Shown one piece after another: positions 17,752 through 43,687 of a DNA stretch of 64,000 bases. The stretch comes from an uncultured Gammaproteobacteria bacterium (GTDB lineage: Bacteria; Patescibacteriota; Microgenomatia; Levybacterales; UBA12049). The position numbers were made by a program, and so were the translations under genes. Under the pieces are notes generated by a model. The model ran no database searches, was not told the origin of the DNA, and worked only from the letters and a program-made list of their open reading frames with translations. The stretch covers positions 223,447 to 287,446 of the forward strand of contig CAZWXQ010000001.1 in assembly GCA_964637955.1 (NCBI GenBank), read 5' to 3'. Within the stretch, counting starts at the first letter, position 1, and each line of letters opens with the position of its first letter.

Positions 17752-17770
17752 TTCTCCCACCCGTTTAATT

Positions 17771-18136
17771 ATGGATCGTTTAGAAGATAGAAATCGAGCC
17801 TCTGAAATAGAATTTAAGAAAAGATCTCATTTTGCTCTTGTTAAGACTACTCTAGTCGCAGTCAAAAGTATGGAGGGTTTTGAAGGGTCTGCAAATATGA
17901 AAGATGCAGTGTTAAAGAGGGCATTATATTATGCTACTTTAGCTTTGCCTTCTCATGTTTCATATCTTGATTTAGGGGATGGAGCTGTGTTTGAAAGAAC
18001 ACCAGATCAGCTGAAAAATATTCCTGAAGAACAACGACAAGGATGGGATTTAAAAAAACTTGATTTGTATGCTGCGGAATTGGCTCAAAGTTTAAATATG
18101 GATTGGACGCCATTTTATCCATCAAATCTTAATTAA
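17771..18136 (+). CDS. hypothetical protein inside the insertion between rpsG and its orphan 3'-end copy
   Basis: 121 aa starting at the first ATG after the rpsG stop. The 17585 start in the ORF track overlaps rpsG out of frame and is rejected. Confidence 0.4.
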   Translation: MDRLEDRNRASEIEFKKRSHFALVKTTLVAVKSMEGFEGSANMKDAVLKRALYYATLALPSHVSYLDLGDGAVFERTPDQLKNIPEEQRQGWDLKKLDLYAAELAQSLNMDWTPFYPSNLN

Positions 18137-18195
18137 GAATTATTAAAAATCTAAAGTATTTAATTAGGTAAATAATAGACTGAAAATAATCGTAA

Positions 18196-18238
18196 ATTGG
18201 CAGACGCTAACAAGGCCTTCTCCCACTTCAGAATCTAA
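18196..18238 (+). repeat. direct repeat, copy 2: orphan synonymous copy of the rpsG 3' end including the stop codon
   Basis: Encodes LADANKAFSHFRI* with 6 synonymous substitutions relative to 17710-17751. Confidence 0.85.
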
Positions 18239-18283
18239 GTTTGACTTTTGTTCAATATCTTTTCTCGTTTAAGTTAATTTCAA

Positions 18284-18832
18284 TTAAGATTTAGGACCTC
18301 TTCTTTTTAGGAGTTTAAGCAGGGGAAGATAGGGATTTAGGGCGTCGGAATTTTGCATGATTTGTCTTTTTGCATCACTACCAACTTTACATTTAAGCAT
18401 TCCCATCAAGGCTTGTCCAACCTGCTCAGAGGCGTTGAAAGCTCTGTCTGTAAGTATGTCTCCATGATGTCCATCAAATAGATCCTTGAGCATGGTTGTG
18501 TATAAATTTAAAATTTCGCTCAGACCTTCTCCTGGGGGATTTGGTGTATACCAAGAGTAGCAGTTATTCCATAAGCCAATTACTCTTTCGCCTCTTGATG
18601 ATGGACTCAGATCTGAGAGATTGGTCAGGTCTACACGATCCTCTTTATATGTGCCATCTAGTCCACCTTCGTATGCCATGCTTGCTCCTAAATTAAATTG
18701 TGTAGCAAGAGTAGTATTTAAAACTTTTACGATTAAAGGATGCTCTGGAATAGGAGAGATGGTAGTCGCCATAACTCTTTGATTGCCTGAATCTATAGTA
18801 TATATGCCCGGTCTTCCTTCATATTCAATCAT
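18284..18832 (-). CDS. hypothetical protein
   Basis: 182 aa. Minus-strand TTGTTT-N17-TATAAT sits 8 nt before the ATG. Moderately acidic, GC-richer than the core genes. Confidence 0.4.
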   Translation of the reverse strand: MIEYEGRPGIYTIDSGNQRVMATTISPIPEHPLIVKVLNTTLATQFNLGASMAYEGGLDGTYKEDRVDLTNLSDLSPSSRGERVIGLWNNCYSWYTPNPPGEGLSEILNLYTTMLKDLFDGHHGDILTDRAFNASEQVGQALMGMLKCKVGSDAKRQIMQNSDALNPYLPLLKLLKRRGPKS

Positions 18833-18940
18833 AATCAGGTATTATAGTCACTTAATTACTCATAAACAAGCCTTAACTATCAAATTATTCATAATCCTAT
18901 AGTTGAAGTTTGTTTTTAATTTCTATATAATTCCTCAGTT

Positions 18941-19879
18941 ATGATTGAAGCTCTAGAAAGAGAATTGGTTCCTCCTGAAAAACCTAGATTTTGGTGGGGA
19001 GAAGACTTAGTTTCTGCAGGATACGAGCAAACAGTTTTTGGTTCAAGTGAAACAACTGAAATTGCTGTTTTTCCTCAGGGGGACAGTTTTCCGACTGATG
19101 GAAAAATCCTTGGAACATCAATTGCGACTAAAAGCAGAATTGCACAATGGGGTGGCGAGGTGGTTCAGAGTGGAGTTGTAAAAATTGCGCAGGCCAGCGA
19201 AGAATCACAGACGCTCCAATATCAAAAAGAAGCTAGGGTTCTAATGAAAAGTCATACTGGAAATAATCTTATAATTCCTCCGAATACGCCATTATTTGGT
19301 TTGTATTCTCAAGGACCAGCTATAGTTGGAGAAGAGTTATATGAAATGGTGGGAAGCGGTAAGGACATTGATATTGAGGGAAAGAGAGGAAGGGCATGGG
19401 ATTTTGTATATGAAAATCCATATAAGAAAAAAGTTGAAGAAATTATCGGTATCGCAAATGAAATCGATAATACTAATAGATGGTATATTCCAAGAGGAAT
19501 AGATTTGAACCTAAAAGATTTGACAAATGCAGGTAGGGATTATAGAAAAGTAGTAAACCGTCCATATGTCGATGTCAAAAGAGGTGAGGCTACAGATATT
19601 TGGTTTGGTGAGCTTCGTGGACTTAAGTTGAGCCGCAGGGTGGCAATTGAAATCGCTAAGCCAATTGTGCCAAAGCTAGCTGTGGCTGCAGATGTTAAAA
19701 AAATGGAAGAGCAAAGAATTTATCCGAATGGAAGACATATCGGAGCAAGGCTTCTTCATCCAGGGTCAGGATTAAATAATCCTGAAGGCTGGCCAATACG
19801 AGTTGAAATTGATACAAGAGGTTCAGTTCAAAAACCAGGAGCTGTTATTTTCCGTGTTATGCGTGCAGAGACTATTTAG
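18941..19879 (+). CDS. hypothetical protein
   Basis: 312 aa, divergent from 18284-18832. TATAAT lies 9 nt before the ATG. Confidence 0.4.
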   Translation: MIEALERELVPPEKPRFWWGEDLVSAGYEQTVFGSSETTEIAVFPQGDSFPTDGKILGTSIATKSRIAQWGGEVVQSGVVKIAQASEESQTLQYQKEARVLMKSHTGNNLIIPPNTPLFGLYSQGPAIVGEELYEMVGSGKDIDIEGKRGRAWDFVYENPYKKKVEEIIGIANEIDNTNRWYIPRGIDLNLKDLTNAGRDYRKVVNRPYVDVKRGEATDIWFGELRGLKLSRRVAIEIAKPIVPKLAVAADVKKMEEQRIYPNGRHIGARLLHPGSGLNNPEGWPIRVEIDTRGSVQKPGAVIFRVMRAETI

Positions 19880-19882
19880 CAA

Positions 19883-20116
19883 TTGACAATTCATGATTTA
19901 AGACATATATTCGGATTTGTGGAAAAATTTACTAAGACTGTTTCAGAAGCTATATTAAGTCTTCCACCTTCCCCTTTTATTGCTGGAGAACAAATGGCTG
20001 CGCTTGTAAAAATTAAAAAGCCGAAGGATCCAAAAGTTTTACGTGTAGATTCTGAAGTTGAATTAAGTTCTGTAACAATTGTTGTACCTAAAAAGGCGCA
20101 GCTACAGGGAATTTAA
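19883..20116 (+). CDS. doubtful small ORF (needs a TTG start)
   Basis: 77 aa. Its only in-frame start at this position is TTG. Confidence 0.2.
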   Translation: MTIHDLRHIFGFVEKFTKTVSEAILSLPPSPFIAGEQMAALVKIKKPKDPKVLRVDSEVELSSVTIVVPKKAQLQGI

Positions 20117-20665
20117 ATGAAAAGTTTTTATGCGAAAGATCGAGGCCAATGGCGTGATTGGTTAGCCGCAAATCATGATAAGGAGGCTGAAATTTGGCTA
20201 ATCTATTATAAAATAGCCTCTGGAAAACCATTCGTGAGCTATAATGACGCAGTTGAAGAAGCGATTTGTTTTGGGTGGATTGACTCCACTCAGCGCCCAA
20301 GAGATAGCGAAAGCTATATGCAGAGATTTAGTCCACGAAAAGATTCTAAAAATTGGTCTGAATTAAATAAAGAAAGATCAAGAAAATTAATTAAGAATAA
20401 GCAAATGACTCCGTTTGGTTTAAAAATGTTAGAAGGAATTGATCTTTCATATCAGCCAATTGTTTTATCATCCGAAATTGAAGCTGCTTTAAAATCAGAT
20501 TCAGAAGTATGGACAAATTGGAATAAATTTGATCATGTATATCAAAGGCTTCGTATAGGCTATATTTTAGAAGGTAAACGTCAGGGAAAAGAAGAGTTCG
20601 ATCGACGACTTAATTCATTTATTAAAGCTACTAAGAAAAATAAAAAGATCGGGACAATCATTTAG
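20117..20665 (+). CDS. YdeI/OmpD-associated (OmdA) family protein
   Basis: Pattern W..WL..NH.....IW......G....SY.DAVEEAICFGWIDS......QRFSPRK..S.WS is typical of PF13376. Confidence 0.6.
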   Translation: MKSFYAKDRGQWRDWLAANHDKEAEIWLIYYKIASGKPFVSYNDAVEEAICFGWIDSTQRPRDSESYMQRFSPRKDSKNWSELNKERSRKLIKNKQMTPFGLKMLEGIDLSYQPIVLSSEIEAALKSDSEVWTNWNKFDHVYQRLRIGYILEGKRQGKEEFDRRLNSFIKATKKNKKIGTII

Positions 20666-20792
20666 GTTGTTTTAGCTCGAAAGGTCTAGTATTTAAAGAC
20701 TGGGAAGGACTTATGACAGGTGTATATATAAAAACTTTATTTTTTGCCTTTATCTATTGACAAAGAATTTCATTAGATCTACTTTATAATTA

Positions 20793-22295
20793 ATGAGGAA
20801 ATTAATTTTTTCTGCTTTTTCGATTATTTTTCTAGCTTTAGTTTTTGTTCCTGATAGCTTGGCTGCAACTACTTCAACCCTTCTTCCAACAGCTGATGGA
20901 GCATACTCTCAATTCACACCAAAAAGCGGATCAGTACATTACACTCAGGTAGACGAGGCATCATGTAATGGAAATACTGATCATAATAGAACTACAGTAG
21001 TTGGATCAAGAGACTCTTATATTGTTTCACTGTCTTCGATACCAAATAATTCTACGATAACTCAAATATCATTAACTCCTTGCGCGTCAAGAAATTCAAC
21101 TGGTGGTGTAAATCCTCAATTAGATTTATTTTATCGATTAAATGGTGTTAATAGTGCAGATGCGGGCGCATATTCACTTACCGGCACAGCTCCGATTGAT
21201 TTATTATCAACAAATTTTTCAGGGCTTTCGATTGTAAAAACTGTTTCAACAACTCTTGAAGTAGGAGCAGTCTTAACTTCAAGTACAAAGGGGGTAAAGC
21301 TAGGTAGATTAGCGACTGTTATAACTTATACTCTTCCCTCACCAACTGCAACTACAAGTAGCGCTACGAATGTAATGACTAGCGGATCATCTTCATCAGC
21401 AACTCTTAATTCTATAGTCAATCCAAATGGAGTAAGTACTAGTGTATTTTATCGTTATGGTTTATCAAACGTAGAATGTAGTTCTTTGACTTCATCAACA
21501 AGCGCTGTTGCCATTGGATCTGGAACTTCTAGTGTTAGTCCTAATGCAACCAGCGTAGGGTCTCTTAACCCCGCTACCACATATTATTTCTGTGCTGTTG
21601 GGACGAGTGCAAGTGGAACTTCATATGGAAATGTACTTTCGTTCGTTACTCCTGGTTCAGCTCCGACAGTTACGACTAATACTGCAACAGATTTATCTAC
21701 GAACTCAGCGATTCTTAATTCGACCGTTAATCCAAACGGAGTCTCGACTTCAGTGAGTTACAAATATGGTACTGTAAATACAACTTGTGATTTACTTTCC
21801 TCATCGACAAGCGCAACTGCTATTGGATCAGGAACATCTGATTTAACGCCTAATGCGAAAAGTGTTGGGTCACTAAGTCCTTCTACTGCATATTATTTCT
21901 GTGCAGTGGGAACTAGCTCAAGTGGCACAGCATACGGTAATGTAATTTTATTTACAACTTCTGCTCTTCCAATTGCTCCGACTGTTACCACAAATGATGC
22001 TACCGAGTTGGCTGTAGTTGGTTCATCTGCTTCGGCAAGTTTAAATTCAACAGTTAACCCTAACGGCACTAGTACAACTGTTAGATATAGATATGGTACT
22101 ATAAATACTGCTTGCAGTGCTTTGGGTAATCAGACCTCAGTAGTCAATATTGGTTCAGGAAGTCTAGATGTTTCTCCCAACACTAGGTCTATTGGTTTTT
22201 TGCCAAAAAATACAACTTTCTATTTCTGTGCAGTAGCAGCCAATTCTGTTGGAACTACATACGGAAATGTCCTCTCCTTTACAACTCTCCCATAA
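20793..22295 (+). CDS. secreted protein with an N-terminal signal peptide and three tandem Fn3-like repeats
   Basis: Signal peptide FLALVFVPDSLAA. Three ~100-aa repeats share NPNG.ST...Y.YG...C...IGSG......YYFCAV.....GT.YGNV. Likely cell-surface protein. Confidence 0.6.
   Translation: MRKLIFSAFSIIFLALVFVPDSLAATTSTLLPTADGAYSQFTPKSGSVHYTQVDEASCNGNTDHNRTTVVGSRDSYIVSLSSIPNNSTITQISLTPCASRNSTGGVNPQLDLFYRLNGVNSADAGAYSLTGTAPIDLLSTNFSGLSIVKTVSTTLEVGAVLTSSTKGVKLGRLATVITYTLPSPTATTSSATNVMTSGSSSSATLNSIVNPNGVSTSVFYRYGLSNVECSSLTSSTSAVAIGSGTSSVSPNATSVGSLNPATTYYFCAVGTSASGTSYGNVLSFVTPGSAPTVTTNTATDLSTNSAILNSTVNPNGVSTSVSYKYGTVNTTCDLLSSSTSATAIGSGTSDLTPNAKSVGSLSPSTAYYFCAVGTSSSGTAYGNVILFTTSALPIAPTVTTNDATELAVVGSSASASLNSTVNPNGTSTTVRYRYGTINTACSALGNQTSVVNIGSGSLDVSPNTRSIGFLPKNTTFYFCAVAANSVGTTYGNVLSFTTLP
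21340..22295 (+). repeat. three tandem ~310-bp coding repeats (Fn3-like modules)
   Basis: Protein-level periodicity is clear. DNA copies have diverged (estimated 60-70% identity by eye). Confidence 0.6.
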
Positions 22296-22345
22296 ATTAA
22301 AACTTATAGTTTGATTTTTGATTTCCTAGCTTGTAAAATATAGCT

Positions 22346-22885
22346 ATGACTGTAGATACAAGACCTGATCAAATGAATTTTGGTCTTCTGGATCCCGGAA
22401 ATATCGATCTTGATCCTGAAGTAATTGAGCATAGGCGTATTCAAGTTATTATTAATGGTGCAGTAATGGGACTTGATAATCCCAATATTCCAAATAGACT
22501 TTTGATGGATTCAGATCCATTGCCTACTATCACATATGATGAGATTAAAGATTATGGTGCATTTCTTCATGAAACAGAGGGTGGAAATAAGATTTTAGTT
22601 GTGACGCAAAATCCAGACGCATTAAAATCTCCAGAAGTAGTGCTCACAGAATTAAGAGAAAGAGCGGCAAGAAGGATAAATGGCATTGGAAGACTTACTT
22701 TTTTAAGAGCAGGAGAGGTGATGCCTCAGCTAGAGCGAGATAAGGGTAATGCTGGGACTTTGTTAAAAGAAACGAAAAGATTTGGTAGGGATAGTGGACA
22801 TGAGTATTTGGGCACGGTTCAAATTATGCAGGCTGCAGCTGGAGAAATGCCTTTTGTTCCTTACTTACCCCCTGTACAAAAATAA
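22346..22885 (+). CDS. hypothetical protein
   Basis: 179 aa acidic ORF; the last gene of the rpsG|fusA island. Confidence 0.4.
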   Translation: MTVDTRPDQMNFGLLDPGNIDLDPEVIEHRRIQVIINGAVMGLDNPNIPNRLLMDSDPLPTITYDEIKDYGAFLHETEGGNKILVVTQNPDALKSPEVVLTELRERAARRINGIGRLTFLRAGEVMPQLERDKGNAGTLLKETKRFGRDSGHEYLGTVQIMQAAAGEMPFVPYLPPVQK

Positions 22886-22970
22886 ATAAACTTAATCTTC
22901 TAGATTCTAAGAAAAATTTATGGTATACTCATTTAGCTTCCAATTGGGAAGCTTTTTTAAAGATTAAACT

Positions 22971-25106
22971 ATGGCAGATTCAGCAAACAGACATTTTGAT
23001 TTAGCAAAAATCCGAAACATCGGAATTATCGCGCACATTGATGCGGGAAAGACTACTACTACCGAGCGCATTCTTTACTACACAGGAAAAACCCATAAGA
23101 TTGGTGATATCGACGAAGGAAATACAGTCATGGACTGGATGAAGGAAGAAAGAGAGCGCGGAATTACTATCGTTTCTGCTGCTACTACAGCATTTTGGTC
23201 TCCAACAGATGGTTCTCAAAAAGGAATTGAACACAGATTTAATATCATCGATACTCCTGGTCACGTAGACTTTACAGCTGAAGTTGAGCGTTCGCTTCGT
23301 GTTCTCGATGGTGGCATTACAGTTCTTGATGCAGAAGAAGGAGTACAGTCTCAGTCAGAAACTGTTTGGAGACAGGCAGACAAATATAAAGTTCCAAGAC
23401 TTTGTTTCGTTAATAAAATGGATAAGCTTGGAGCAGATTTCTTAGCTACAGTTAAGTCTATTGAAGATAGACTTGGCGCTAACACAGCTATCATGGTACT
23501 TCCAATTGGTTCTGAGCAAACATACGTTGGAAATGTAGATCTTCTTACAAGAAAAGCTATCAGATGGGGCGGAGATGAACTTGGTGCAACTTACGAAGTA
23601 AATGATGACATTCCTTCGGAAATGAAAGATCAAGTTGAAGAATATAGAAAAAAACTTATTGAGAAAATTTCAGAGACAGATGACACTCTTCTTGAAAAAT
23701 ATTTAAACGGCGAAGAATTTAGCGTAGAAGAGCTTAGAAAAGCACTTCGTGCAGCAGTTATTGCTTATAAATTAGTACCTATTTATGCAGGAACTTCTCT
23801 TAGAAACAAAGGCGTACAGCCACTTCTTGATGCTGTTGTAGAATATCTTCCTAGCCCAGTAGATCTAAAAGAAGTTGTAGGATTAAATCCAAAAACAGAA
23901 GCAGAAGAGAAAAGACTTCTTGTTGAAGATGCTCCTCTATCAGGATTAGCATTTAAAATTCAGAATGATCCACACGTAGGAAAGCTTACATTTTATAGAG
24001 TTTATTCAGGAAAAATCCAGGCTGGAAGCTATATTTATAATTCAACAAAAGATGTAAAAGAGCGTGTTGGACGACTTCTTTTAATGCATTCAAATCAAAG
24101 AGAAGAAATCCAAGAAGCATATGCAGGTGAAATTGTAGCTGTAGTTGGACTTAAAGATACTATTACCGGAGACACGCTTTGTGATGAAGCAAATCCAATT
24201 ATTCTTGAAAAAATTTCGTTCCCAGAGCCAATTATTTCACTTGCAATTGAGCCAAAAACTAAATCAGATCAGGAAAAACTAGGTTTAGCTTTGAAGAGGC
24301 TTATGGATGAAGATCCTACATTCCAAGTTAAAACTAACCATGAGACAGGTCAGACTATTATCTCAGGTGTTGGAGAATTACAGCTCGAGGTTAAAGTAAA
24401 TACTATGAAAAATGATTTCGGAGTAGAAGCAAACGTTGGAGCTCCTCAAGTAGCTTATAAAGAAACAGTAAAAACTGAAGCAACAGGAGAAGGAAAATAT
24501 ATCAGACAGTCCGGAGGACGCGGTCAATATGGTCATTGCTGGCTCAGAATTAAACCAAAACCAAGAGGAGAAGGAAATGAATTTATAGACGCTATCAAGG
24601 GTGGAGCTATTCCTGCAGAATTCGTTAAAGCTATCGAAAAAGGTATCAAAGAATCAGAGGAAAATGGAATTTACCTTGGATATCCAGTAGTAGATATGAG
24701 CGTAGAAGTTTATGATGGATCATTCCATGAGGTCGATTCTAGTGAAATGTCATTTAAAATCGCAGCAAGTAAAGCTCTTCAAGCAGCTGCACAGAACGCA
24801 GGACTTACACTTCTTGAGCCTATTATGAAAGTAGAAGTTACAACTCCAAGTGAATTCTTGGGGGATGTTATCGGAGATCTTTCAAGTAAGAGAGCTCAGA
24901 TTTCAGGCACTGAGGACAAAGGAAAAGCGACTATCATTAAAGCATTAGTTCCATTATCAGAATTATCTGGTTATGCGACAGTTCTAAGAAGTATGACACA
25001 AGGAAGAGCAACTCCGTACATGGAAGCATCACATTATGATGAAGTTCCTGCTAGTATTCAGGCTCAAATGAAAGCCGCATCTACCTTCACTGGAAGAGTT
25101 GAATAA
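22971..25106 (+). CDS. fusA: elongation factor G
   Basis: GTPase motifs AHIDAGKTT, DTPGHVDF, NKMD, plus conserved domains II-V. Confidence 0.97.
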   Translation: MADSANRHFDLAKIRNIGIIAHIDAGKTTTTERILYYTGKTHKIGDIDEGNTVMDWMKEERERGITIVSAATTAFWSPTDGSQKGIEHRFNIIDTPGHVDFTAEVERSLRVLDGGITVLDAEEGVQSQSETVWRQADKYKVPRLCFVNKMDKLGADFLATVKSIEDRLGANTAIMVLPIGSEQTYVGNVDLLTRKAIRWGGDELGATYEVNDDIPSEMKDQVEEYRKKLIEKISETDDTLLEKYLNGEEFSVEELRKALRAAVIAYKLVPIYAGTSLRNKGVQPLLDAVVEYLPSPVDLKEVVGLNPKTEAEEKRLLVEDAPLSGLAFKIQNDPHVGKLTFYRVYSGKIQAGSYIYNSTKDVKERVGRLLLMHSNQREEIQEAYAGEIVAVVGLKDTITGDTLCDEANPIILEKISFPEPIISLAIEPKTKSDQEKLGLALKRLMDEDPTFQVKTNHETGQTIISGVGELQLEVKVNTMKNDFGVEANVGAPQVAYKETVKTEATGEGKYIRQSGGRGQYGHCWLRIKPKPRGEGNEFIDAIKGGAIPAEFVKAIEKGIKESEENGIYLGYPVVDMSVEVYDGSFHEVDSSEMSFKIAASKALQAAAQNAGLTLLEPIMKVEVTTPSEFLGDVIGDLSSKRAQISGTEDKGKATIIKALVPLSELSGYATVLRSMTQGRATPYMEASHYDEVPASIQAQMKAASTFTGRVE

Positions 25107-25182
25107 TTTTATATCCACACATATACTATAGTTTATGAATCTCAATTTCGATTTTTCGAAATTTACTTTATAGAAAATTTTT

Positions 25183-35134: not shown

Positions 35135-35175
35135 GCTTTTACCATCAAAAATAACTGGTGGTATTTTTTTGAATT

Positions 35176-36357: not shown

Positions 36358-36406
36358 GTACGCCCAGCAAGCTCAATATGAGCTTTGCACTTTGATTTTT
36401 TAGTAT

Positions 36407-36715
36407 ATGCCAAAAGGAAGAATTCGTGTTCGCTTAAAGAGCTACGACGCTAGAGTCATCGACGCTAGTTGTCAGCAAATATTAGATACGGCCATCAGGA
36501 CCGGAGCTAAGGTAGTGGGCCCAATTCCTTTACCTACTAAAAGATCAGTCTACGCAGTAAATAAATCCCCTTTCATCGATAAAGATGCTAGAGACCATTT
36601 CCAAATTAAAGTTCATAAAAGACTTATCGATATAGTTTCTCCTACAGAGAAGACTATGGATAGTCTTGGTCACCTCGAACTCCCAGCAGGAGTAAATATC
36701 GAAATTAGAATGTAG
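36407..36715 (+). CDS. rpsJ: 30S ribosomal protein S10
   Basis: IRVRLKSYDARVID...GPIPLPT...DKDARDHFQIKVHKRLIDIV.PTEKT aligns well to bacterial S10. Confidence 0.95.
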   Translation: MPKGRIRVRLKSYDARVIDASCQQILDTAIRTGAKVVGPIPLPTKRSVYAVNKSPFIDKDARDHFQIKVHKRLIDIVSPTEKTMDSLGHLELPAGVNIEIRM

Positions 36716-36719
36716 TTTT

Positions 36720-37055
36720 TCAGAAGGACTCTGGTCTGGAGGGTCGGTGTTGTTCTTGATAACGATCATAAGTTTCTTTTCTCCAAACTTCTAATTCTTG
36801 TCCATCACTCATTGGAGCACCAGCCAAATATCTAAATCTATCTACAGTCATAGCGCTTTCGGGATCATAGCTAACCCCATCAGCCACTGCATTCAAAATT
36901 GGATCTATTAAGCCTACTTTGCCTCCGGAAAGTCGCATGAACTCAGTCATAAGCTCAGGAAGGATTGTTATTTGTAAATCAACTACTTCTCTCGCTTCAA
37001 CTAGTGTCCAAACTCTTTCATTTGGCGTTAGATCATCAGTCATATTTTCAGGCAT
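36720..37055 (-). CDS. hypothetical protein
   Basis: 111 aa. Minus-strand TTGACT-N17-TACAAT lies 2 nt before the ATG. Confidence 0.35.
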   Translation of the reverse strand: MPENMTDDLTPNERVWTLVEAREVVDLQITILPELMTEFMRLSGGKVGLIDPILNAVADGVSYDPESAMTVDRFRYLAGAPMSDGQELEVWRKETYDRYQEQHRPSRPESF

Positions 37056-37176
37056 TTATTGTACTACTTATAAACATTGAAGTCAACCTATAGTGTATTT
37101 TTGGAATAAACATTGGAATAAACATGCAACTATTCAATAGTTTGACTTTATTATTTGAATACTTTATAGTCCCCAC

Positions 37177-37746
37177 ATGAATATTGTTGAGATAGGTCCG
37201 GGACTTTTACCTATTCACGAGCGTTCCGATGTGGTTAGGGATGCTGTGCGAGCTGGAACGTATACTGCAGTAGAGATATCTAAAGACAAAACGCATCCAT
37301 CAGTATGGGAAATGGTTAATGGGAGATTTATTGAAGCAGATATAAATAGAAGTCTTCCTTTAAAGCGAGAATCCATAGATCAAATATGGTTAATGAATGT
37401 ATTCGGGGGTTTTACTTTTGTGCCAAGAGTTAGCAGAAACGGAAGAACAACGACTTGGAGTTTAGGTTATGATGGGGTATTTCGTAAACTAGCTAGAGCT
37501 GTAAGGCCGGGTGGTCAGATAATTATAGGAGAGACATATACTCCTACTCCGATTGGTAATTTAGATTTTTCAGAATTCGGATTGGAAACAGAATTATTTA
37601 TCGACGAAAGATTTCATGAATTTAAAGAAAGATATGGTTTTCATTCACATGAACATAAATATGAGAGCAAAAGAGAAAAACCTTATTTTCTTGTATTAAC
37701 AAAACCAGATGCACCCACACCTCTTTCCGAAGCGCCCGCATTATAA
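37177..37746 (+). CDS. probable class I SAM-dependent methyltransferase
   Basis: Motif I VEIGPG, acidic end of beta2 (AVEIS), motif II EADI, and VRPGGQIII. TTGACT-N17-TATAGT lies 6 nt before the ATG. Confidence 0.5.
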   Translation: MNIVEIGPGLLPIHERSDVVRDAVRAGTYTAVEISKDKTHPSVWEMVNGRFIEADINRSLPLKRESIDQIWLMNVFGGFTFVPRVSRNGRTTTWSLGYDGVFRKLARAVRPGGQIIIGETYTPTPIGNLDFSEFGLETELFIDERFHEFKERYGFHSHEHKYESKREKPYFLVLTKPDAPTPLSEAPAL

Positions 37747-37828
37747 TACTTCTGAAATAACTGGTCCCAAAAAATATATTCAGTGATTTCTGATTGACAC
37801 TTAGGATAGCCTTGATATAATTGCATTC

Positions 37829-38410
37829 ATGGCTGCAAGAAAAATTATTCAGGCAGGAGATCCTAGGCTTAAATCAATCAATAGAATTATAAGAGATGTT
37901 GATTCTCTTGAGACAAAAAAACTTATCAAGGATCTGACTTCCTCAATGTATAAGGCTGATTTAATTGGAATTGCCTCAAATCAAATCGGAGAAAATCGAA
38001 CTGTATTTCTAACACATCCTAGATCCACAAAAGCCAGAAAATTGGGTAAAACAGATGATTTAAGAGTATATATAAATCCACATTATAACTATGTTTCGCC
38101 GAATCAGAGTCTTATTTATGAAGGTTGTGGTAGTGTGGGAGAAATTTTTGGGCCCGTTTTGCGTCCTAGTGAGATTGAGATTTTTGCATTAAATGAAAAA
38201 GGAGAAAAATTTAGCCTCAGATGTAATGGAATTTTAGCTCGTGTCATTCAGCATGAGATGGATCACTTGAATGGAATAGAGTTTCTTGAGAAAGTTAGTG
38301 ATTACTCAAAAATAATTAACAAAAAGTTTTATAGAAAAAATATTAGGAATTCGCAGCTTCAGATGGAAAACTCTCAAGTTACTAAAATTGATTATTTTTT
38401 GGTAAAATAA
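37829..38410 (+). CDS. def: peptide deformylase
   Basis: Motifs GIASNQIG, EGCGS, QHEMDHLNG. TTGACA-N17-TATAAT lies 7 nt before the ATG. Confidence 0.85.
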   Translation: MAARKIIQAGDPRLKSINRIIRDVDSLETKKLIKDLTSSMYKADLIGIASNQIGENRTVFLTHPRSTKARKLGKTDDLRVYINPHYNYVSPNQSLIYEGCGSVGEIFGPVLRPSEIEIFALNEKGEKFSLRCNGILARVIQHEMDHLNGIEFLEKVSDYSKIINKKFYRKNIRNSQLQMENSQVTKIDYFLVK

Positions 38411-38415
38411 AATAT

Positions 38416-38580
38416 ATGGCAAAGGTAAATCGTGAGTGGCATAAAGAGCACAGAATGCCTAAAAATGCTACAACGCAGCAAAGACTCAAGTGGCATTTGA
38501 TTCATGCCAAAGAATGCGCATGCCGAGAAATGCCCGCCAAGCTTCAGAGGTTAATATCAGATAAATCTACCAAAAAATAA
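38416..38580 (+). CDS. unannotated 54-aa His/Cys-rich small ORF
   Basis: MAKVNREWHKEHRMPKNATTQQRLKWHLIHAKECACREMPAKLQRLISDKSTKK. Paired His and Cys residues suggest metal binding. Fills an otherwise empty 230-bp gap. Confidence 0.3.
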   Translation: MAKVNREWHKEHRMPKNATTQQRLKWHLIHAKECACREMPAKLQRLISDKSTKK

Positions 38581-38686
38581 GTTTTGCTATTCATTAGTTT
38601 TTCTTAGGATTGCCTTTCACTTCACTCAAGTTTTATCCGCTTAGTGCGTTCGGGATCTCCATTCGCTTCGCTCATGGTGTATAATT

Positions 38687-39120
38687 TTCTCATGAAGATT
38701 CAACAAGGTGCAGTGAGCGCCATAATTCTGGATGAAGACGACCAGATTTTATTCTTAAGAAGATCTAAAACTGATGATTTTATGCCTGGAAGTTGGGATA
38801 TTCCAGGTGGTGGCCTGGATTATGGCGAGGAGCCGGAGGCAGGTTTGAGGCGTGAAGTGATGGAAGAAACTGGCCTAAAAATTGAAATACTTGAAATTTT
38901 AACAGTAAGTACTTATTTTATGGGCGAAGTCCAGAGGATAGAAATTACATATCTTTGCAACGCAATTGATGAACATAGATTGAAATTAAGTAGTGAGCAT
39001 ACTGACTATGCATGGATTTGGGCAGGAGAAAGCGAAAGGATTAGTTCATTGAATCTTAATAGTTATATTCAAAAAATTGCTGATATTGCCATAAAAATTG
39101 CAATAGAAAGATCTTTTTAA
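38687..39120 (+). CDS. NUDIX hydrolase (start moved to the ATG 6 nt after TATAAT)
   Basis: Nudix box GGGLDYGEEPEAGLRREVMEETGL. The 38644 start in the ORF track would place the -10 box inside the coding region. Confidence 0.75.
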
Positions 39121-39162
39121 TTAGCTTTAATCTCGAGGCTAAATGCGGTATAATCTCCTCTC

Positions 39163-39738
39163 ATGTCATTTGAAAGATTTAGAATATATAGCTCTTCTGA
39201 TTCCGGTTATTATACAAGGGGAAAAGAAAAACCTAGGCCATTATTAACGGACGAATTTGCGCAACAAATTTTTGCTGTAAGTCAGCATCTTGATGATGAA
39301 TTGCCTGTGGCGAGTCTAATAGCATATTCAGAAGATAAGAGGAAATTATTTAAAAACCAGATAGCAAGGGAGATAGCCATAAGAAATGGTCGTGCAAAAA
39401 ATATACCAAGCTCAAACCTTGAGCAGATAGAAAATAATGCTTTGGCAATTGATGCTTTAAAGTTAAGATTGGGTCGATTAGATTCGCTTCCTTTAGCTCC
39501 AGACATATGGGCCGATTTGTTTATACCCGGATCTGAAATTGAGCTTGATATTCCTCAAAAAAAAGTTTTGATGGATGCTATAACTGGCACGCTAAAGATT
39601 CCAAATGCAAAATTTACAAATAAATGGGTGGATTCTCAAAATACTGTTTACAATTTAAGATTAATCGATGATTCTTCGGAATTTCCACAAGACCCAAGGC
39701 TACCTCGTACAAGAATATTTCTAGCAAAAGCATTTTAA
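39163..39738 (+). CDS. hypothetical protein
   Basis: 191 aa. GGTATAATCTCCTCTC-ATG is almost identical to the element before ORF 8186. Confidence 0.35.
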   Translation: MSFERFRIYSSSDSGYYTRGKEKPRPLLTDEFAQQIFAVSQHLDDELPVASLIAYSEDKRKLFKNQIAREIAIRNGRAKNIPSSNLEQIENNALAIDALKLRLGRLDSLPLAPDIWADLFIPGSEIELDIPQKKVLMDAITGTLKIPNAKFTNKWVDSQNTVYNLRLIDDSSEFPQDPRLPRTRIFLAKAF

Positions 39739-39798
39739 TAATTTTAATTTCAAAAAACATATTGCTTTTATAACTAAAAGCCAATATAATTTCCCCTT

Positions 39799-40254
39799 GT
39801 GACTAATAAAGAGAGTTTAAAATCTAAAATAGAATTTAACCCTCATGATAATCCGGATAGCTATTTTGCAGAACTTACTTCATGGGAAATTGCTGACAAT
39901 ACTTTAATGTTTGCCAGATCAGCTGAATTAAGTCCTGAGGATAAGGCTAAGGGATTAAGAAGGACTGTTCAGGCAAGCTTTGAATATGAAGGCGAGCATA
40001 TAGGAATGATTTTTGAGGCTGTTGGTAAAAATCCAGATAGAATAATTATTCAGGGAGGAAGTCTTGCAGAGGGTCATGAAAATCCTACTATGTTTAATTA
40101 TGTAATAACCAAAGGGGCTGTAGTGAATGGCTCAGAAGCTGAGGTCAGCAAAGATGAGCAATCTAGAGTTAAGTCTTTATTAGCTCGTGCAAATCTGCAA
40201 ATTGCTATTCGAAATCCATTTCATGATTCCTCAAAAACTTCTCAGTCTGCATAA
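39799..40254 (+). CDS. hypothetical protein (GTG start in the ORF track)
   Basis: 151 aa. TATAAT lies 8 nt upstream. Start codon uncertain. Confidence 0.3.
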   Translation: MTNKESLKSKIEFNPHDNPDSYFAELTSWEIADNTLMFARSAELSPEDKAKGLRRTVQASFEYEGEHIGMIFEAVGKNPDRIIIQGGSLAEGHENPTMFNYVITKGAVVNGSEAEVSKDEQSRVKSLLARANLQIAIRNPFHDSSKTSQSA

Positions 40255-40280
40255 TATTATGCTTGCAGATAAGATTAGCT

Positions 40281-41108
40281 CTACGAAGATTTAAAGTAGC
40301 CACCGGTAGCTATTTCTTCAAGTTTGGCAACTCCAGCAAGTAATGTTAATTGGCTATCAACATGATCTAAATTTTTGGGAGTAAGTCTGTGACTTGTTTC
40401 AGTTATAACTCTATCAATTAATGGGCCAGTTGTTTTGGAGCTTCTTCCTAATATTTTTTCGCGCTTCGAATATTGTAATTCTGTAGCATTTCCCGGAGCC
40501 CTAAAATACATTATTTCATCAGATGGTCTATTTAAAGTAATCAAATTTCGAAAGTATCCTGATTTATCTACTCCTCTTAGGGATGTATAGGCGGATAGCA
40601 TTGCTTCTGATACGGCCTTTTCAAGGCCGCCATCGTGAGTTGCTTTTAGGAAATTCATTATTGGACTAAATAAAGCTATATATAGATCATTGCTTGAAAA
40701 ACTTCTTTTGGAATTTGTGAGTGATACTTTTAAGCCTTGCTGAATTTCTGATGAACATTCAACTTCAGCTTCGTTTAGTGTCGAAAACAGCAATCCTAAA
40801 GTAGCAGCGACTGCAAAACCTTCTACATCATCATTCGTTTTTAATTGAGGTAGATCTGCTTGAAAAATTACCCATTCAGGATTTTGAATCCCAGTATCTT
40901 TTAGAACAGGACCAAATCCCCATTCTCTATCAGGATTGGGTGGAGTAAATATTCTAGGTAAGTCTAGTCTTTCTCTAATACTATCTGTTTGCTCTGCTTG
41001 GAAATCTGAAGCAGAAGGAATAATTGATTTGTTAACTGCGACTTGAATCGCGCCTGGCTCTGCAGCTAAGCGGTATCTTGCTGGACTTCCTTCGGTAAGC
41101 TTGCTCAT
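40281..41108 (-). CDS. hypothetical protein
   Basis: 275 aa. Minus-strand TTGATT-N17-TATAAT lies 5 nt before the ATG. Local similarity to ORF 8186 (FRAPGNATELQYSKRE vs FRGENTPGFSFYEAKR). Confidence 0.4.
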   Translation of the reverse strand: MSKLTEGSPARYRLAAEPGAIQVAVNKSIIPSASDFQAEQTDSIRERLDLPRIFTPPNPDREWGFGPVLKDTGIQNPEWVIFQADLPQLKTNDDVEGFAVAATLGLLFSTLNEAEVECSSEIQQGLKVSLTNSKRSFSSNDLYIALFSPIMNFLKATHDGGLEKAVSEAMLSAYTSLRGVDKSGYFRNLITLNRPSDEIMYFRAPGNATELQYSKREKILGRSSKTTGPLIDRVITETSHRLTPKNLDHVDSQLTLLAGVAKLEEIATGGYFKSS

Positions 41109-41226
41109 GATGATGGATTATAGATTTTTGTTTATTTAAAATCAAATTTAGAAAGCATATTTTTATTTCTATTTCTTGTATTTGCATACGATTGACAATT
41201 AAATTAGCTTTTGAAAAGATGAAATT

Positions 41227-42657
41227 GTGGAGGATATTTCAGTTTCTGATAAACTCAAAGAGAAAAGTGGAAAAAAAAGATTATCAAATATTGCTTATCA
41301 ACGTCACTTTAAGTTAGTTTTTTCAGGAATTATTATAATAAATGTTATTTTAATTCTTTTATTTCTTTTCCTCCGATCCGATATGTATAGGCTTTCAAAA
41401 ACCGTAATAGTAAATAGTTCACAAAATACGAATGATAGTGTTGATTTTCCAGTAATAAAAACAAGTAAATTAGTTTTAGAAAAAGGAAGAGTTTTAATAA
41501 CAAACGACTGCGATTATGAGTCGAAGTTTATATGTAAGCTTTACATTCAAAATAGAGATGGAAATAATAAAGTAGATTTACTTAGCGTATTTGATTATTC
41601 AAAAGGTGATGCTGCAGGGAATTTCGAAGGATTAAAGCTTGAGGGGAATGTAGGTAAAAATCTAGTATACTCAGAAACATATTATGCAAAAAAGTCATCA
41701 GATAATCAACCTATCTACAAAAATACATTAGGTTATATTAATTTAGTAAATGGTAAAAAAACTTTAATTGAAAACTTGACTCAATGGTCGGATTCTAAAA
41801 AACAAAACGAAGTAGGTGAAAAAGGAGTAATAATCCAAATTATTCCAATTGAAGAAAGAAATTCTGTAGTTTATTCTTTAAGTGAAGACGATAAATATTA
41901 TATAAAGGAATATAATTTCGATACAAAAGAAACAAAAATTGTAGTTGATAGTAGTAAGTTGCAGCCCGAGCCAAATTTTTATAATAATCTCCTAGAGGTT
42001 AATGAAGAATCAGATGCTTCACGCCAAAGGACAGTTTACTTGCTTCCTCCGCCTGTCGTAATTCATCAATTGGGTAAAGATATAATTGTGCTTAAGTTGA
42101 TTACTGGAGGAATCGGTAAAACAAAAAGAATAGATCTTGCTACGGGTAAATATTTTGATTATTCTTTTATTCCAAACAAGCTAAGTAATATAGTTAGTAA
42201 TGGTGAAAAAATTGCTTATACCTATATAAATTCCTCTGGATATGAAGTTCTGGAGGTTGTTGAAGCAAGAGATAATAAAAGATTAGTGATCTATAAAAGA
42301 TTATCAGCCGATAATTTAGGAATCATTAAATTTGGTTTTATGGGAAATATTTTATTATTTCAAGAATCCCCAGGTAAAATTTTCGCCTGGAATAGTAATC
42401 TATATTCATCAAGTTCTCAGTCTGATTTTGATTCAATTAATGAGCAATTTTATGAAGAAAGTCAAAATTATAGAAAAAATAATAACAATTTAGATAACTT
42501 ATTTATTCTTTCTAGAAATGTATATAATGGTAGTTTTTCGCAAGATAAACACACTTTAGCTAAATTGGTATTTGAAAATAGAAATAAAACCTTCAAAATA
42601 GAAGAATCAAAAGCATTTTCTACAACCGCAAAAGATTCGATGTTAATTAAATGGTGA
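41227..42657 (+). CDS. large N-terminally anchored Asn/Lys-rich protein
   Basis: 476 aa with a single N-terminal TM helix. GTG start in the ORF track. Confidence 0.4.
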   Translation: MEDISVSDKLKEKSGKKRLSNIAYQRHFKLVFSGIIIINVILILLFLFLRSDMYRLSKTVIVNSSQNTNDSVDFPVIKTSKLVLEKGRVLITNDCDYESKFICKLYIQNRDGNNKVDLLSVFDYSKGDAAGNFEGLKLEGNVGKNLVYSETYYAKKSSDNQPIYKNTLGYINLVNGKKTLIENLTQWSDSKKQNEVGEKGVIIQIIPIEERNSVVYSLSEDDKYYIKEYNFDTKETKIVVDSSKLQPEPNFYNNLLEVNEESDASRQRTVYLLPPPVVIHQLGKDIIVLKLITGGIGKTKRIDLATGKYFDYSFIPNKLSNIVSNGEKIAYTYINSSGYEVLEVVEARDNKRLVIYKRLSADNLGIIKFGFMGNILLFQESPGKIFAWNSNLYSSSSQSDFDSINEQFYEESQNYRKNNNNLDNLFILSRNVYNGSFSQDKHTLAKLVFENRNKTFKIEESKAFSTTAKDSMLIKW

Positions 42658-42688
42658 GACTTATCTATCCTCTTGTATTTGCATAAGA

Positions 42689-43516
42689 TTGACAATTATT
42701 TACGCATTAAATACATTATTCTTAGTGGCTAAAAATAAAATATCTTCAGAGAGAAATTATTTAAAAATTTTTATTGGGCTTTTTATAGCAATATTTTTGA
42801 TTGTAATTCCTGTGATTTTTTACCCATATAGCAAAAATTCAATAAACGTAATTCCAGCTGGAATAATAGTATTTATCGATCAAGGTGATGTGGTTGTAAA
42901 AAAAGATGGACTAACAAATAAGATAACTAACTGGGGATATAATTCCGATCCTGTTTTGTCACCAGATAAAACTAAGATTGCATTTATATCGAAGTCAGAA
43001 GAAACTCTAAATGCTGAAAAAAATCCAACAGGATTTATACCTAGTTCATCGAACATTTGGATAATCGATATCGATGGTCATAATGCTAAAAAATTAACAG
43101 ATCATATAGATTTCGTTGGGAGAGATAATTTACGTTGGTTAGAAAATAATCGTTTGATTTATTCAGAAGGTGAGGATTCAGTGCGATTATATGATTTAGA
43201 AGCAGAAGAGATAACGACCTTGATGGGTCCAGTTGAGCCTGTTCCTGGCTGCGTTGATGCTTGCGGATATTCAACTTCATTTAAATATACGCCTGATAAT
43301 AAGTTACTGGTTTGGATTCTTTCTTCTGATGGAGAAGGATCAAAGATGCGAGTACTAAATCTGGGAGATTTTAGCACTAAAGAGGTAGATCTTCCTTTTG
43401 GTTATATCTCTGAGCTACATGTTGATAATCAGTTTTTAACAGGAGTTGTATTAAATTATGTTGATAATATTACCTCAAATTTAAAGGTTGATTTAAGAAC
43501 TGCAACCATTCAATAA
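42689..43516 (+). CDS. membrane-anchored PD40/TolB-like beta-propeller repeat protein
   Basis: N-terminal TM helix. Repeated (S/T)PD.(K/N)...F.S......IW..D.DG.N...LT blades. Confidence 0.45.
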   Translation: MTIIYALNTLFLVAKNKISSERNYLKIFIGLFIAIFLIVIPVIFYPYSKNSINVIPAGIIVFIDQGDVVVKKDGLTNKITNWGYNSDPVLSPDKTKIAFISKSEETLNAEKNPTGFIPSSSNIWIIDIDGHNAKKLTDHIDFVGRDNLRWLENNRLIYSEGEDSVRLYDLEAEEITTLMGPVEPVPGCVDACGYSTSFKYTPDNKLLVWILSSDGEGSKMRVLNLGDFSTKEVDLPFGYISELHVDNQFLTGVVLNYVDNITSNLKVDLRTATIQ

Positions 43517-43532
43517 TTTACAACCTATCCTC

Positions 43533-43561
43533 TTGCGCTTAGGCTCGATTTGCTATATAAT
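43533..43561 (+). promoter_or_regulatory. promoter TTGCGC-N17-TATAAT upstream of the rplC operon
   Basis: Preceded by an ATCCTCTTG element also found at 42665 and, loosely, at 41185. Confidence 0.45.
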
Positions 43562-43640
43562 TGGTTCTACAAAATGGCTTTACAAACACAGGAGGTGATA
43601 GCTACATAGTTTAAATTTACAGTTTATTCTTACCTGAATA

Positions 43641-43667
43641 GGCGACACTATGTGGTCGCTTTTTTTG
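43641..43667 (+). terminator. hairpin plus U-tract 20 nt before the rplC ATG (terminator or leader attenuator)
   Basis: GGCGACAC-ta-TGTGGTCGC followed by TTTTTTT. Confidence 0.55.
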
Positions 43668-43687
43668 TTATCTGAGCCTAAAAAAAT

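Follow-up and report, generated by a model that had tools for sequence, protein, structure and literature searches.

How does a gene order that tolerates almost no interruption come to be cut three times inside its classical operons? The rpoBC-str-S10-spc supercluster is the textbook case of a gene order frozen over billions of years. In a 64,000-nt stretch of the genome of an uncultured member of the Patescibacteriota (assembly GCA_964637955.1, contig CAZWXQ010000001.1, positions 223,447 to 287,446; hereafter the window), this supercluster is split into four blocks, with fusA standing alone, tuf and rpsJ forming a pair, and rpsJ separated from rplC. A first-pass annotation of the sequence proposed three accessory islands that had used the junctions of the cluster as integration sites. 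Taken overall, our analysis points instead to breaks that are old and for the most part vertically inherited, with genes turning over at their margins, and not to three recently integrated accessory islands.

The open reading frame (ORF) listing and Pfam matches give the + strand order rpoB-rpoC-rpsL-rpsG, 5219 bp, fusA, 10069 bp, tuf-rpsJ, 6972 bp and rplC-rplD-rplW-rplB (Table 1). The gaps lie exactly where the first-pass annotation had placed them. It had also stated that rpsJ remains attached to tuf, which we confirmed: the two genes are 49 nt apart in the window and adjacent in each relative that shows both. The fourth block comprises the S10 operon minus rpsJ, plus the spc operon, without interruption; its first four genes were named by Pfam, and those beyond rplB by ORF positions and sizes matching the relatives. 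To judge the gaps we used a baseline of tuf-anchored loci from 80 diverse genomes, mostly of unrelated bacteria, among the EF-Tu matches listed; these matches also supplied other loci of ultra-small bacteria but contained no near relative of the window. Among these matches the medians of the three gaps are only 97-118 nt (36-45 diverse bacteria), rpsG/fusA exceeds 1 kb in 0/36 genomes, fusA/tuf exceeds 2 kb in 2/42 and rpsJ/rplC exceeds 2 kb in 0/38; the arrangement in the window is therefore unusual among bacteria.

Relatives were collected as EF-G and L3 homologues on long contigs with 10-kb flanks, and 15 further loci came from a metagenome scan with the rplC-leader pattern described below (loci are given L numbers). 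The EF-G homologues place the organism in the Microgenomates group of the Patescibacteria; those with names are labelled Dojkabacteria, Levybacteria and Woesebacteria. EF-G identity to the window is 94% for L082/L085 and L096, 91% for L083/L087, 88% for L084/L089, 87% for L094, 83% for L091 and 79% for L093, and the L3 protein of L095 is 92% identical. All sampled relatives at or above 87% EF-G identity, and L095 too, have each break that their locus spans. The rpsG/fusA gap, 5.2 kb in the window, measures 2.0-2.9 kb in the relatives at or above 87%, 0.13 kb in L091 and 1.8 kb in L093; the fusA/tuf gap, 10.1 kb in the window, measures 7.6-9.1 kb, 2.9 kb and 1.25 kb, respectively. The rpsJ/rplC gap, 7.0 kb in the window, is 1.1-5.1 kb in relatives (a range that pools those at or above 87% with the leader-pattern metagenome loci, whose EF-G identity is mostly not known), 0.6 kb with a single ORF in L091 and 0.15 kb in L093. 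The grading of gap sizes from the relatives at or above 87% to L091 and then to L093 indicates that the breaks are old and grew stepwise. Synonymous sites are near saturation even in comparisons with the closest relatives (identical-codon fraction 0.6-0.75), so that these comparisons span roughly genus-level time.

The conserved blocks themselves are untouched. The order rpoB-rpoC-rpsL-rpsG is contiguous in L082, L083, L084, L091, L093, L094 and L096, the order of block 4 is uninterrupted and Pfam-annotated in L085, L087, L089 and L095, and there are zero insertions in rpoB-to-rpsG and in the 10-kb stretch from rplC to secY in all sampled relatives. Other loci from the Candidate Phyla Radiation (CPR), the Kaiser-, Campbell-, Portnoy-, Moranii- and Gracilibacteria among them, have one to three lineage-specific ORFs at fusA/tuf and/or rpsJ/rplC, and such ORFs are mostly not found in the sampled non-CPR bacteria. 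We read the clade of the window as the extreme case of a chain of independently promoted modules in these bacteria.

In a presence/absence matrix, 17 of the 29 insert ORFs recur at the same junction in one or more relatives, and the other 12/29 are found in the window only. Shared content is found at fusA/tuf, which the first-pass annotation had counted as an accessory insertion. The histidine kinase, response regulator and MazG genes are shared there by four relatives, at 94, 91, 88 and 87% EF-G identity, and the three closest of these also share the LPG_synthase_C, 6-transmembrane (6-TM) and 92-aa genes in the same order, with the 203-aa ORF likewise before tuf; this is largely the common content of a stable arrangement. 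The remainder differs between genomes. After rpsJ, L085 has def and NUDIX, L095 has DnaA_C-like, def and Kelch-like genes, L087 has a PMT glycosyltransferase, and L089 has LysM, hydrolase, VTT and Zeta_toxin-like genes. After fusA there is PvlArgDC in three relatives (accompanied by NLPC_P60 in L084), GT87 in L096 and OKR_DC_1 in the window. The alternation of OKR_DC_1, which lies next to EamA, with PvlArgDC reads as an in-place non-orthologous replacement. The small ORFs that stand just before tuf in the relatives are ~20% identical between positional equivalents, an identity at which their orthology is not demonstrable. The idea of a hotspot of accessory insertions is thus retained in part: the junctions do hold variable, lineage-specific genes, but three foreign islands do not agree with native composition, shared breaks and the lack of mobility genes.

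Composition gave no sign of foreign origin. The inserts had been described as GC-richer and compositionally distinct; their GC contents are 0.370, 0.335 and 0.336 (inserts 1, 2 and 3) against ~0.355 for the window, and their tetranucleotide profiles correlate with the rest of the window at r = 0.962, 0.977 and 0.953, all higher than the values of the core blocks rpoBC-rpsLG (0.898), fusA (0.873) and tuf-rpsJ (0.739). Among the small acidic orphan ORFs a few have a GC content of 0.39-0.41, and tuf and rpsJ are equally high. The inserts are thus of native composition, and since GC, GC at third codon positions and tetranucleotide profiles show nothing, we dropped composition as evidence of foreign origin. 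A translation-initiation design peculiar to the islands had also been claimed. The pattern is real: a perfect TATAAT lies 6-9 nt before the start in 11/27 insert ORFs (at 11 nt in one more), the genes concerned have no Shine-Dalgarno sequence, and they fit the predicted design of leaderless mRNAs, with a -10 hexamer 6-9 nt from the start. It is equally common, however, in ordinary genes upstream of rpoB (8/16 ORFs at 1-9600, with GNAT, NUDIX, Zincin_1 and others), and so is not specific to the inserts. The core blocks do not use it, and their internal genes have GGAG-type sites. The design marks stand-alone as opposed to operon-internal genes, not foreign origin.

Signals of mobility were also sought. 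No integrase, transposase, phage or defence family was found among the insert ORFs tested with Pfam, NCBIfam, PHROGs and PADLOC, the Pfam annotations already computed for the inserts of the relatives list no recombinase family, the window contains no tRNA, and the repeat search of the window gave no repeats bounding insert 2 or insert 3.

What the repeat search did reveal is a 65-nt direct repeat of the rpsG 3' end. The displaced copy encodes the end of the protein, LADANKAFSHFRI followed by the stop (also given as ADANKAFSHFRI and stop), and differs from the live gene by 5 nucleotides over the last 12 codons, all synonymous. Between the two copies lies the window-specific 121-aa ORF (orf121), and the repeat encloses these 487 nt, not the whole of insert 1. 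A systematic search recovered a comparable fragment after rpsG in L094 (7986-8015), with 9/9 residues identical and 3 nucleotide differences, and fragments after rpsJ in L095 (1329-1358) and L111 (2887-2916), which lie 38-39 nt past the stop and match the live gene at 8/9 residues, with 10 nucleotide differences in L095 and 7 in L111. The displaced copies comprise the final 9-18 codons of rpsG or rpsJ. When their last nine codons and the stop are taken together, the four fragments show 24 nucleotide differences, of which 22 are silent (21 synonymous and one TAG-to-TAA); the two others are one Ala-to-Thr codon change in each rpsJ fragment. Because such an excess of silent differences is unlike that of a freely decaying local duplicate, the displaced ends are probably scars of recombination between diverged lineages. 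It is the pattern expected where functional alleles of diverged lineages are joined with one illegitimate end. We infer that the ends of conserved blocks serve as breakpoints of DNA exchange among relatives, which would provide a mechanism for content turnover without mobile elements.

Each downstream block has predicted start signals of its own. At fusA a predicted extended -10 element is followed by a hairpin with a U-run; promoter and hairpin are both kept in L082, L083 and L084, the promoter is also kept in L096, where the hairpin is replaced, and L091 has a comparable hairpin with U-run in the alignment. The tuf signals are kept in L085, L087, L089 and L094, and promoter and U-run also in the aligned L091 and L093. 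In both cases the hairpin and U-run begin ~6 nt past the -10 box, which would place them at the predicted 5' end of the mRNA, and there is no Shine-Dalgarno sequence. These 5' hairpins may act as 5' stabilisers, as insulators against upstream read-through or as attenuators.

These observations suggest a four-unit cluster, and we consider the following account rather likely. The supercluster would be divided into four self-sufficient transcription units, rpoBC-rpsLG, fusA, tuf-rpsJ and rplC onward, in which fusA, tuf and rplC would each be read from their own conserved promoter followed by a hairpin and U-run. Because the blocks would not depend on read-through, the three junctions between them would tolerate extra DNA, and would gradually have filled with stand-alone genes, most of them with a leaderless-type promoter. 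Part of this content would be fixed and vertically inherited (DUF8412/OmdA; LPG_synthase_C, 6-TM, 92-aa, kinase, response regulator and MazG; in the closest relatives def and NUDIX), and the remaining part would be gained, lost or replaced between genomes. Exchange would most likely proceed by recombination between related lineages, anchored in the conserved flanking genes and with one illegitimate end, and such one-sided illegitimate recombination would leave displaced rpsG or rpsJ 3' ends behind. We infer that autonomy of the blocks came first and that the junctions became permissive afterwards.

Other accounts have to be weighed against this one. The source is a metagenome-assembled genome, and mis-joins can occur in conserved regions such as ribosomal clusters, so that an artefact of assembly or binning, a chimeric contig fusing ribosomal fragments to unrelated DNA, comes to mind. 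We regard it as extremely improbable: an independent Logan contig (L001) contains the 179-aa ORF, fusA, the decarboxylase and EamA in identical order and thereby reproduces both fusA junctions, at least nine independent assemblies from other samples have the same breaks with homologous neighbours, and composition is uniform over all junctions. Classical genomic islands, whose integrative elements would have used the rpsG and rpsJ 3' ends and a site near fusA and since decayed, would account for integrase-like direct repeats of the target-gene 3' end at rpsG (window, L094) and rpsJ (L095, L111), for content that differs among relatives and for the many orphan ORFs. This explanation is nonetheless improbable, given the lack of mobility genes among the insert ORFs tested and in the Pfam annotations of the relatives, the missing tRNA and the native composition. 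The repeats, moreover, enclose just 26-487 nt and not the inserts, their copies differ almost only synonymously, unlike freely decaying att cores, and over half the ORFs keep their synteny among relatives at genus level.

A purely ancient and stable vertical rearrangement, in which the junctions are ordinary and the differences reflect gene loss and divergence of orphans, is the more serious competitor, though we think it considerably less likely than the account of permissive junctions. The insert 2 core and the OmdA gene are conserved, composition is uniform, the near-saturation at synonymous sites among all sampled relatives shows that much time has passed, and the pre-tuf ORFs illustrate how divergence can hide orthology. 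It does not accommodate the distinct, recognisable Pfam families at one junction (after rpsJ and after fusA), which are gains or replacements and not divergence, nor the displaced 3' ends with their nearly only synonymous differences, which point to exchange at the junctions, nor the adjacent 10-kb S10-spc block, insertion-free in all relatives. Several points also count against the account that we prefer. Two outgroup genomes are the basis for placing autonomy before permissiveness; decayed integrative elements could instead have left the scars as att-site remnants; and the promoters, terminators and starts of transcription are predicted. Right after a promoter, a hairpin with a U-run would stop the gene's own transcript unless it works as a 5' stabiliser or attenuator. 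The turnover spans long times, and the word hotspot is apt only relative to the uninterrupted neighbouring ribosomal blocks. Per-gene identity ranks shift (L096 is 94% identical in fusA but 84% in rpoB/rpoC; tuf is 91% identical in L082 vs 95% in L083) and hint at mosaicism without being decisive; we did not rely on per-gene or synonymous-site identity for mosaicism, synonymous sites being near saturation.

As the first-pass annotation had proposed, rplC has a predicted promoter and leader hairpin of its own, both conserved in relatives: the promoter region is conserved in 6/6 aligned sequences and visible upstream of the 15 leader-bearing metagenome loci. The leader, ~105 nt long in 16 distinct variants (window 43533-43687, L085, L087, L089, L091, L095, L098-L100, L102-L104, L107-L115), lies directly 5' of rplC wherever downstream sequence is available, and seems confined to the clade at or above 83% EF-G identity. 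About 45 nt of it are invariant while L3 identity drops to 57%. In L093, where the 150-nt spacer between rpsJ and rplC holds no insert, a -10 box of the TATAAT type and a hairpin with U-run are already present. The Rfam 15 search gave no match in the window at the gathering threshold, and in E-value mode only a chance snoRNA match (E = 2.6). A covariance model of the leader (R1) scores 118 bits at the window leader; neither the rest of the window nor the other CPR loci gave it a further match.

Within the leader a putative upstream open reading frame (uORF) of 11-12 codons (23 in L114) ends with TAG in 16/16 variants. Its ATG lies 12-13 nt past the -10 box, and its frame is kept across length differences of 3 nt and 36 nt. 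The peptides follow the pattern MA[LRKMFS][QRL][TI][QLM]EVI(V)AT. None of the 16 variants contains a regulatory codon run, and the variable positions are not conserved; since codons 3-6 vary freely, the uORF probably senses no specific amino acid. The leader of the window folds with a z-score of -4.4. In the minimum-energy fold GGAGGUGAUAGCUACAUAG pairs with CUAUGUGGUCGCUUUUUU in most of the 16 variants, and in the consensus fold GGAGGUGA...UAGCUACAUAG pairs with CUAUGUGGUCGCUUUUUU (terminator loop, 3' arm and U-run), enclosing the small P2 hairpin. P2 has one covarying pair (7 UA, 4 AU, 2 GU); the long helix and terminator are invariant and hence uninformative. The 5' strand of the long helix is the 3' half of the uORF, and when the strand overlapping the uORF is masked, the terminator hairpin is predicted in 16/16 variants. 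The uORF thus overlaps one strand of what are predicted to be mutually exclusive antiterminator and terminator structures.

The leader is a candidate for a new, previously undescribed control element and in its modelled folds fits a uORF-coupled terminator/antiterminator switch; an L4-type protein-binding leader is equally possible. As a switch, the nearly leaderless uORF would report the speed of ribosome engagement on the nascent transcript. A ribosome at the uORF stop would cover the antiterminator strand, the terminator would form and the L3-L4-L23-L2 operon would be off, while with few free ribosomes the antiterminator would form and the operon would be transcribed. If this attenuator model is true, loss of the ATG should give more read-through and disruption of GGAGGTGA...CATAG less. 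Control of a ribosomal operon through a ribosome-engagement uORF, combined with the scars into a picture of the split cluster as independently regulated, recombination-exchangeable modules typical of Patescibacteria, is a bolder proposal, which we offer tentatively and hold to be doubtful as a whole.

Some leaders have additional features. GC-rich, hairpin-forming inserts of ~36-60 nt occur in AT-rich leaders of L089 (9723-9862, the same as in L114) and L096 (~9960-10000); the L089/L114 insert lies in frame inside the rplC-leader uORF and brings it to 23 codons, and the one in L096 stands in place of the hairpin of the fusA leader. These inserts may represent small mobile elements or repeats. 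A sub-clade has an extra conserved element between the leader terminator and rplC, with the motif GCTGAGGTCGC (L100 4892-5024, L108 567-827, L114 8239-8378, L115 1572-1609), and a terminator-to-rplC spacer of ~40-260 nt. By eye, a possible outer helix AUGGCU/AGCC could be made out just before rplC in several variants, not in all.

Table 1. Features of the split supercluster and its inserts, in window coordinates.
Feature	Coordinates	Strand	Remarks
rpoB	9606-13016	+	Pfam
Block 1, rpoB-rpoC-rpsL-rpsG contiguous	9606-17751	+	Pfam
rpoC	13003-16785	+	Pfam
rpsL	16837-17271	+	Pfam
rpsG	17278-17751	+	Pfam
Live rpsG 3' end, copy A of 65-nt direct repeat	17687-17751	+	repeat search, alignment
Gap rpsG/fusA, insert 1	17752-22970		5219 bp
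orf121 (121 aa)	17771-18136		found in window only
Displaced rpsG 3'-end fragment	18174-18238	+	outside any ORF; 487 nt after live copy
182-aa ORF	18284-18832	-	found in window only
312-aa ORF	18941-19879		same junction in 1-2 relatives
77-aa ORF	19883-20116		found in window only
DUF8412/OmdA protein	20117-20665		gene precedes fusA in 5 relatives
500-aa ORF, probably secreted repeat protein (I1_e500)	20793-22295		same junction in 1-2 relatives
179-aa ORF	22346-22885		same junction in 1-2 relatives
fusA predicted extended -10 TGGTATACT	22921-22929	+	
fusA hairpin AGCTTCCAATTGGGAAGCT	22935-22953	+	then U6 run (to 22959), 11 nt before ATG
fusA; block 2, fusA alone	22971-25106	+	Pfam, EF-G homologues
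Gap fusA/tuf, insert 2	25107-35175		10069 bp
OKR_DC_1 decarboxylase (484 aa, pyridoxal phosphate-dependent)	25183-26637		not found at fusA/tuf in relatives
EamA transporter	26645-27541		Pfam
Alpha/beta hydrolase	27515-28432	-	not found at fusA/tuf in relatives
LPG_synthase_C	28455-29363	-	syntenic in L082, L083, L084
6-TM protein	29418-30236		syntenic in L082, L083, L084
92-aa protein	30239-30517		syntenic in L082, L083, L084
Histidine kinase (HisKA/HATPase_c)	30542-32110	+	syntenic in L082, L083, L084, L094
Response regulator	31951-32469	-	syntenic in L082, L083, L084, L094
Tandem paralogues, 204 aa and 203 aa	32560-33789		203-aa syntenic in L082, L083, L084; 204-aa not found at junction in relatives
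MazG	33810-34139		syntenic in L082, L083, L084, L094
165-aa and 124-aa ORFs	34178-35097		not found at fusA/tuf in relatives
tuf predicted promoter TTGACG-17-TATTAT	35106-35134	+	
tuf hairpin TACCATCA...TGGTGGTA	35140-35163	+	then U7 (to 35170), 5 nt before ATG
tuf	35176-36357	+	Pfam
Block 3, tuf and rpsJ	35176-36715	+	Pfam
rpsJ	36407-36715	+	Pfam
Gap rpsJ/rplC	36716-43687		6972 bp
Insert 3, up to rplC promoter	36716-43532		
111-aa ORF	36720-37055	-	found in window only
Methyltransferase-like ORF	37177-37746		at rpsJ/rplC in 1-3 relatives
def (peptide deformylase)	37829-38410		at rpsJ/rplC in 1-3 relatives
NUDIX	38644-39120		at rpsJ/rplC in 1-3 relatives
191-aa ORF	39163-39738		at rpsJ/rplC in 1-3 relatives
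151-aa ORF	39799-40254		found in window only
275-aa ORF	40281-41108	-	found in window only
476-aa membrane-anchored ORF	41227-42657		at rpsJ/rplC in 1-3 relatives
275-aa membrane-anchored beta-propeller-like ORF	42689-43516		found in window only
rplC predicted promoter, TTGCGC	43533-43538	+	17-nt spacer to TATAAT
rplC predicted promoter, TATAAT	43556-43561	+	
Leader uORF, ATG...TAG	43574-43609	+	MALQTQEVIAT then stop; 3' half GGAGGTGATAGCTACATAG (43591-43609) is predicted antiterminator strand
Leader hairpin P2, TATTC/GAATA	43625-43640	+	leader hairpin region 43623-43668
Terminator-like hairpin AGGCGAC-ACTATGTG-GTCGCTT	43640-43661	+	overlaps U7 (43660-43666), 21 nt before rplC ATG
rplC	43688-44614	+	Pfam
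Block 4, rplC, rplD, rplW, rplB, rpsS, rplV, rpsC, rplP to secY	43688-53890	+	Pfam for first four
rplD	44601-45395	+	Pfam
rplW	45400-45690	+	Pfam
rplB	45668-46453	+	Pfam

Pfam together with signal-peptide and transmembrane predictions bore out the contents that the first-pass annotation had listed for the inserts: orphan ORFs, secreted or surface proteins, a two-component system, NUDIX, MazG and def genes and a decarboxylase are all there. A signal peptide or N-terminal transmembrane anchor is predicted for the 500-aa ORF, both members of the 204/203-aa tandem pair and the 476-aa and membrane-anchored 275-aa ORFs of insert 3 (I1_e500, I2_i204, I2_j203, I3_h476, I3_i275). That tandem pair and the NUDIX gene, related to another NUDIX gene at 7321-7767, are the paralogues among the insert ORFs, and no further paralogue family was found among them. 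Besides its signal peptide, the 500-aa ORF contains internal DNA repeats at ~309-327-nt spacing (a 163-nt pair 72% identical, and a 69-nt core present three times at 71-77%), and its product is probably a repeat protein that is secreted or sits at the surface; at the identical junction, L096 encodes a homologue of 283 aa (62%).

In insert 2 the kinase and response regulator genes are convergent and their ORFs overlap by 160 nt; the overlap is ~130-140 nt in L082 and L084, and in L083 it measures just 7 nt. Identity to the L082 counterpart is 99% for the adjacent 92-aa protein, above the 94% of EF-G. The PvlArgDC genes of the relatives encode a pyruvoyl-dependent arginine decarboxylase of ~165 aa (L082 12953-13444, L083 12221-12712, L084 12788-13300) at or near the position of OKR_DC_1 in the window, immediately 3' of fusA in L083 only. 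An origin of OKR_DC_1 outside the CPR was considered and rejected: its homologues grade from 81% to ~55% identity and include Parcubacteria and Daviesbacteria proteins. In insert 3 a 28-nt repeat (96% identical) lies 5' of the 476-aa and the membrane-anchored 275-aa ORFs (41165-41201 and 42662-42698), and both repeat regions resemble the rplC promoter region at 43524-43560 (CTATCCTCTTG...GATT), which suggests duplicated promoters or a shared regulator site.

Outside the inserts, secE-nusG-rplKAJL, the usual neighbours before rpoB, are not there. Positions 1-9605 hold small stand-alone genes (GNAT, GrpB, MliC-like, NUDIX, Zincin_1), most with TATAAT 6-9 nt 5' of the ATG, and the 427 nt immediately 5' of rpoB (9179-9605) are without a called ORF. 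The L3 protein (43688-44614) is long, 308 aa, and many homologues align over just ~71-75% of it, which indicates a C-terminal extension that is variable in the clade of the window.

That a clade of ultra-small bacteria tolerates three multi-kb interruptions inside classical operons suggests that the constraint on this gene order can be relaxed by autonomy of the blocks. There is also a practical consequence. S10 and L3 belong to a syntenic ribosomal-protein block that is commonly concatenated for phylogeny and used in binning, and in the clade of the window S10 lies up to 7 kb from L3. The scars offer a concrete handle on gene exchange in reduced genomes without mobile elements. Ribosome synthesis in these organisms, which so far cannot be cultivated by themselves, may be subject to a regulator not yet described, and the rplC leader is a candidate for it that can be tested. 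Leader and scars are the parts most worth following.

That the contiguity of the supercluster is under selection has been argued before (PMC6735719). Gammaproteobacteria and Bacilli nevertheless provide documented insertions of non-mobile genes between supercluster units, small at the outset and in some cases larger later on; among them are bfd-bfr between str and S10, tusDCB between rpoBC and str, and nrdHEF within the rpoBC operon (PMC6735719, PMC8046335). Like the window, these Brandis-type insertions place a few to a dozen non-mobility genes between conserved blocks, are inherited within clades and show no sign of long-distance horizontal gene transfer; the blocks of the window likewise keep order and orientation around non-mobile inserts, and their breaks are inherited in the clade (at least 87% EF-G identity). 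The split cluster is an event of this kind. It differs in cutting inside units defined in E. coli (rpsG/fusA and fusA/tuf in str, rpsJ/rplC in S10), in having three cuts together, with larger inserts (5-10 kb) and partial turnover, and in concerning Patescibacteria, not covered there. The insertion sites lie inside the E. coli str and S10 operons, yet each downstream block has a conserved predicted promoter.

The rpsJ/rplC boundary has a counterpart outside the bacteria. In archaeal str-type clusters S10 is linked to the EF-1alpha gene. The boundary of the window coincides with the archaeal one and rpsJ stays with the EF-Tu homologue; the separation of uS10 from the uL3-uL4-uL23 cluster is the rule in Archaea (PMC10833476). 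Because rpsJ is 0.15 kb from rplC in the relative L093 and only one ORF intervenes in L091, the split is secondary and not an inherited archaeal-type order.

The leader invites comparison with two kinds of control element. Mycobacteria have leaderless or short-leader uORF attenuators. As in leader-peptide attenuators generally, the short uORF of the rplC leader is predicted to overlap the 5' strand of an antiterminator whose rival structure is an intrinsic terminator; unlike them, it has no regulatory codon run, its codons 3-6 encode unrelated residues, and the operon it precedes encodes ribosomal proteins. The other kind comprises the S10 leader of E. coli, which mediates attenuation by L4, and the candidate L4 leader that precedes rplC-rplD-rplW-rplB in Archaeoglobi (Eckert and Weinberg 2020, PMC7247131). 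The window leader matches no Rfam family and has a short conserved ORF, whereas the E. coli S10 leader is without a uORF. All three nevertheless place a structured 5' leader with a terminator-like hairpin before the L3-L4-L23-L2 operon, and the rplC leader would be a functional analogue of the E. coli S10 leader, not a homologue.

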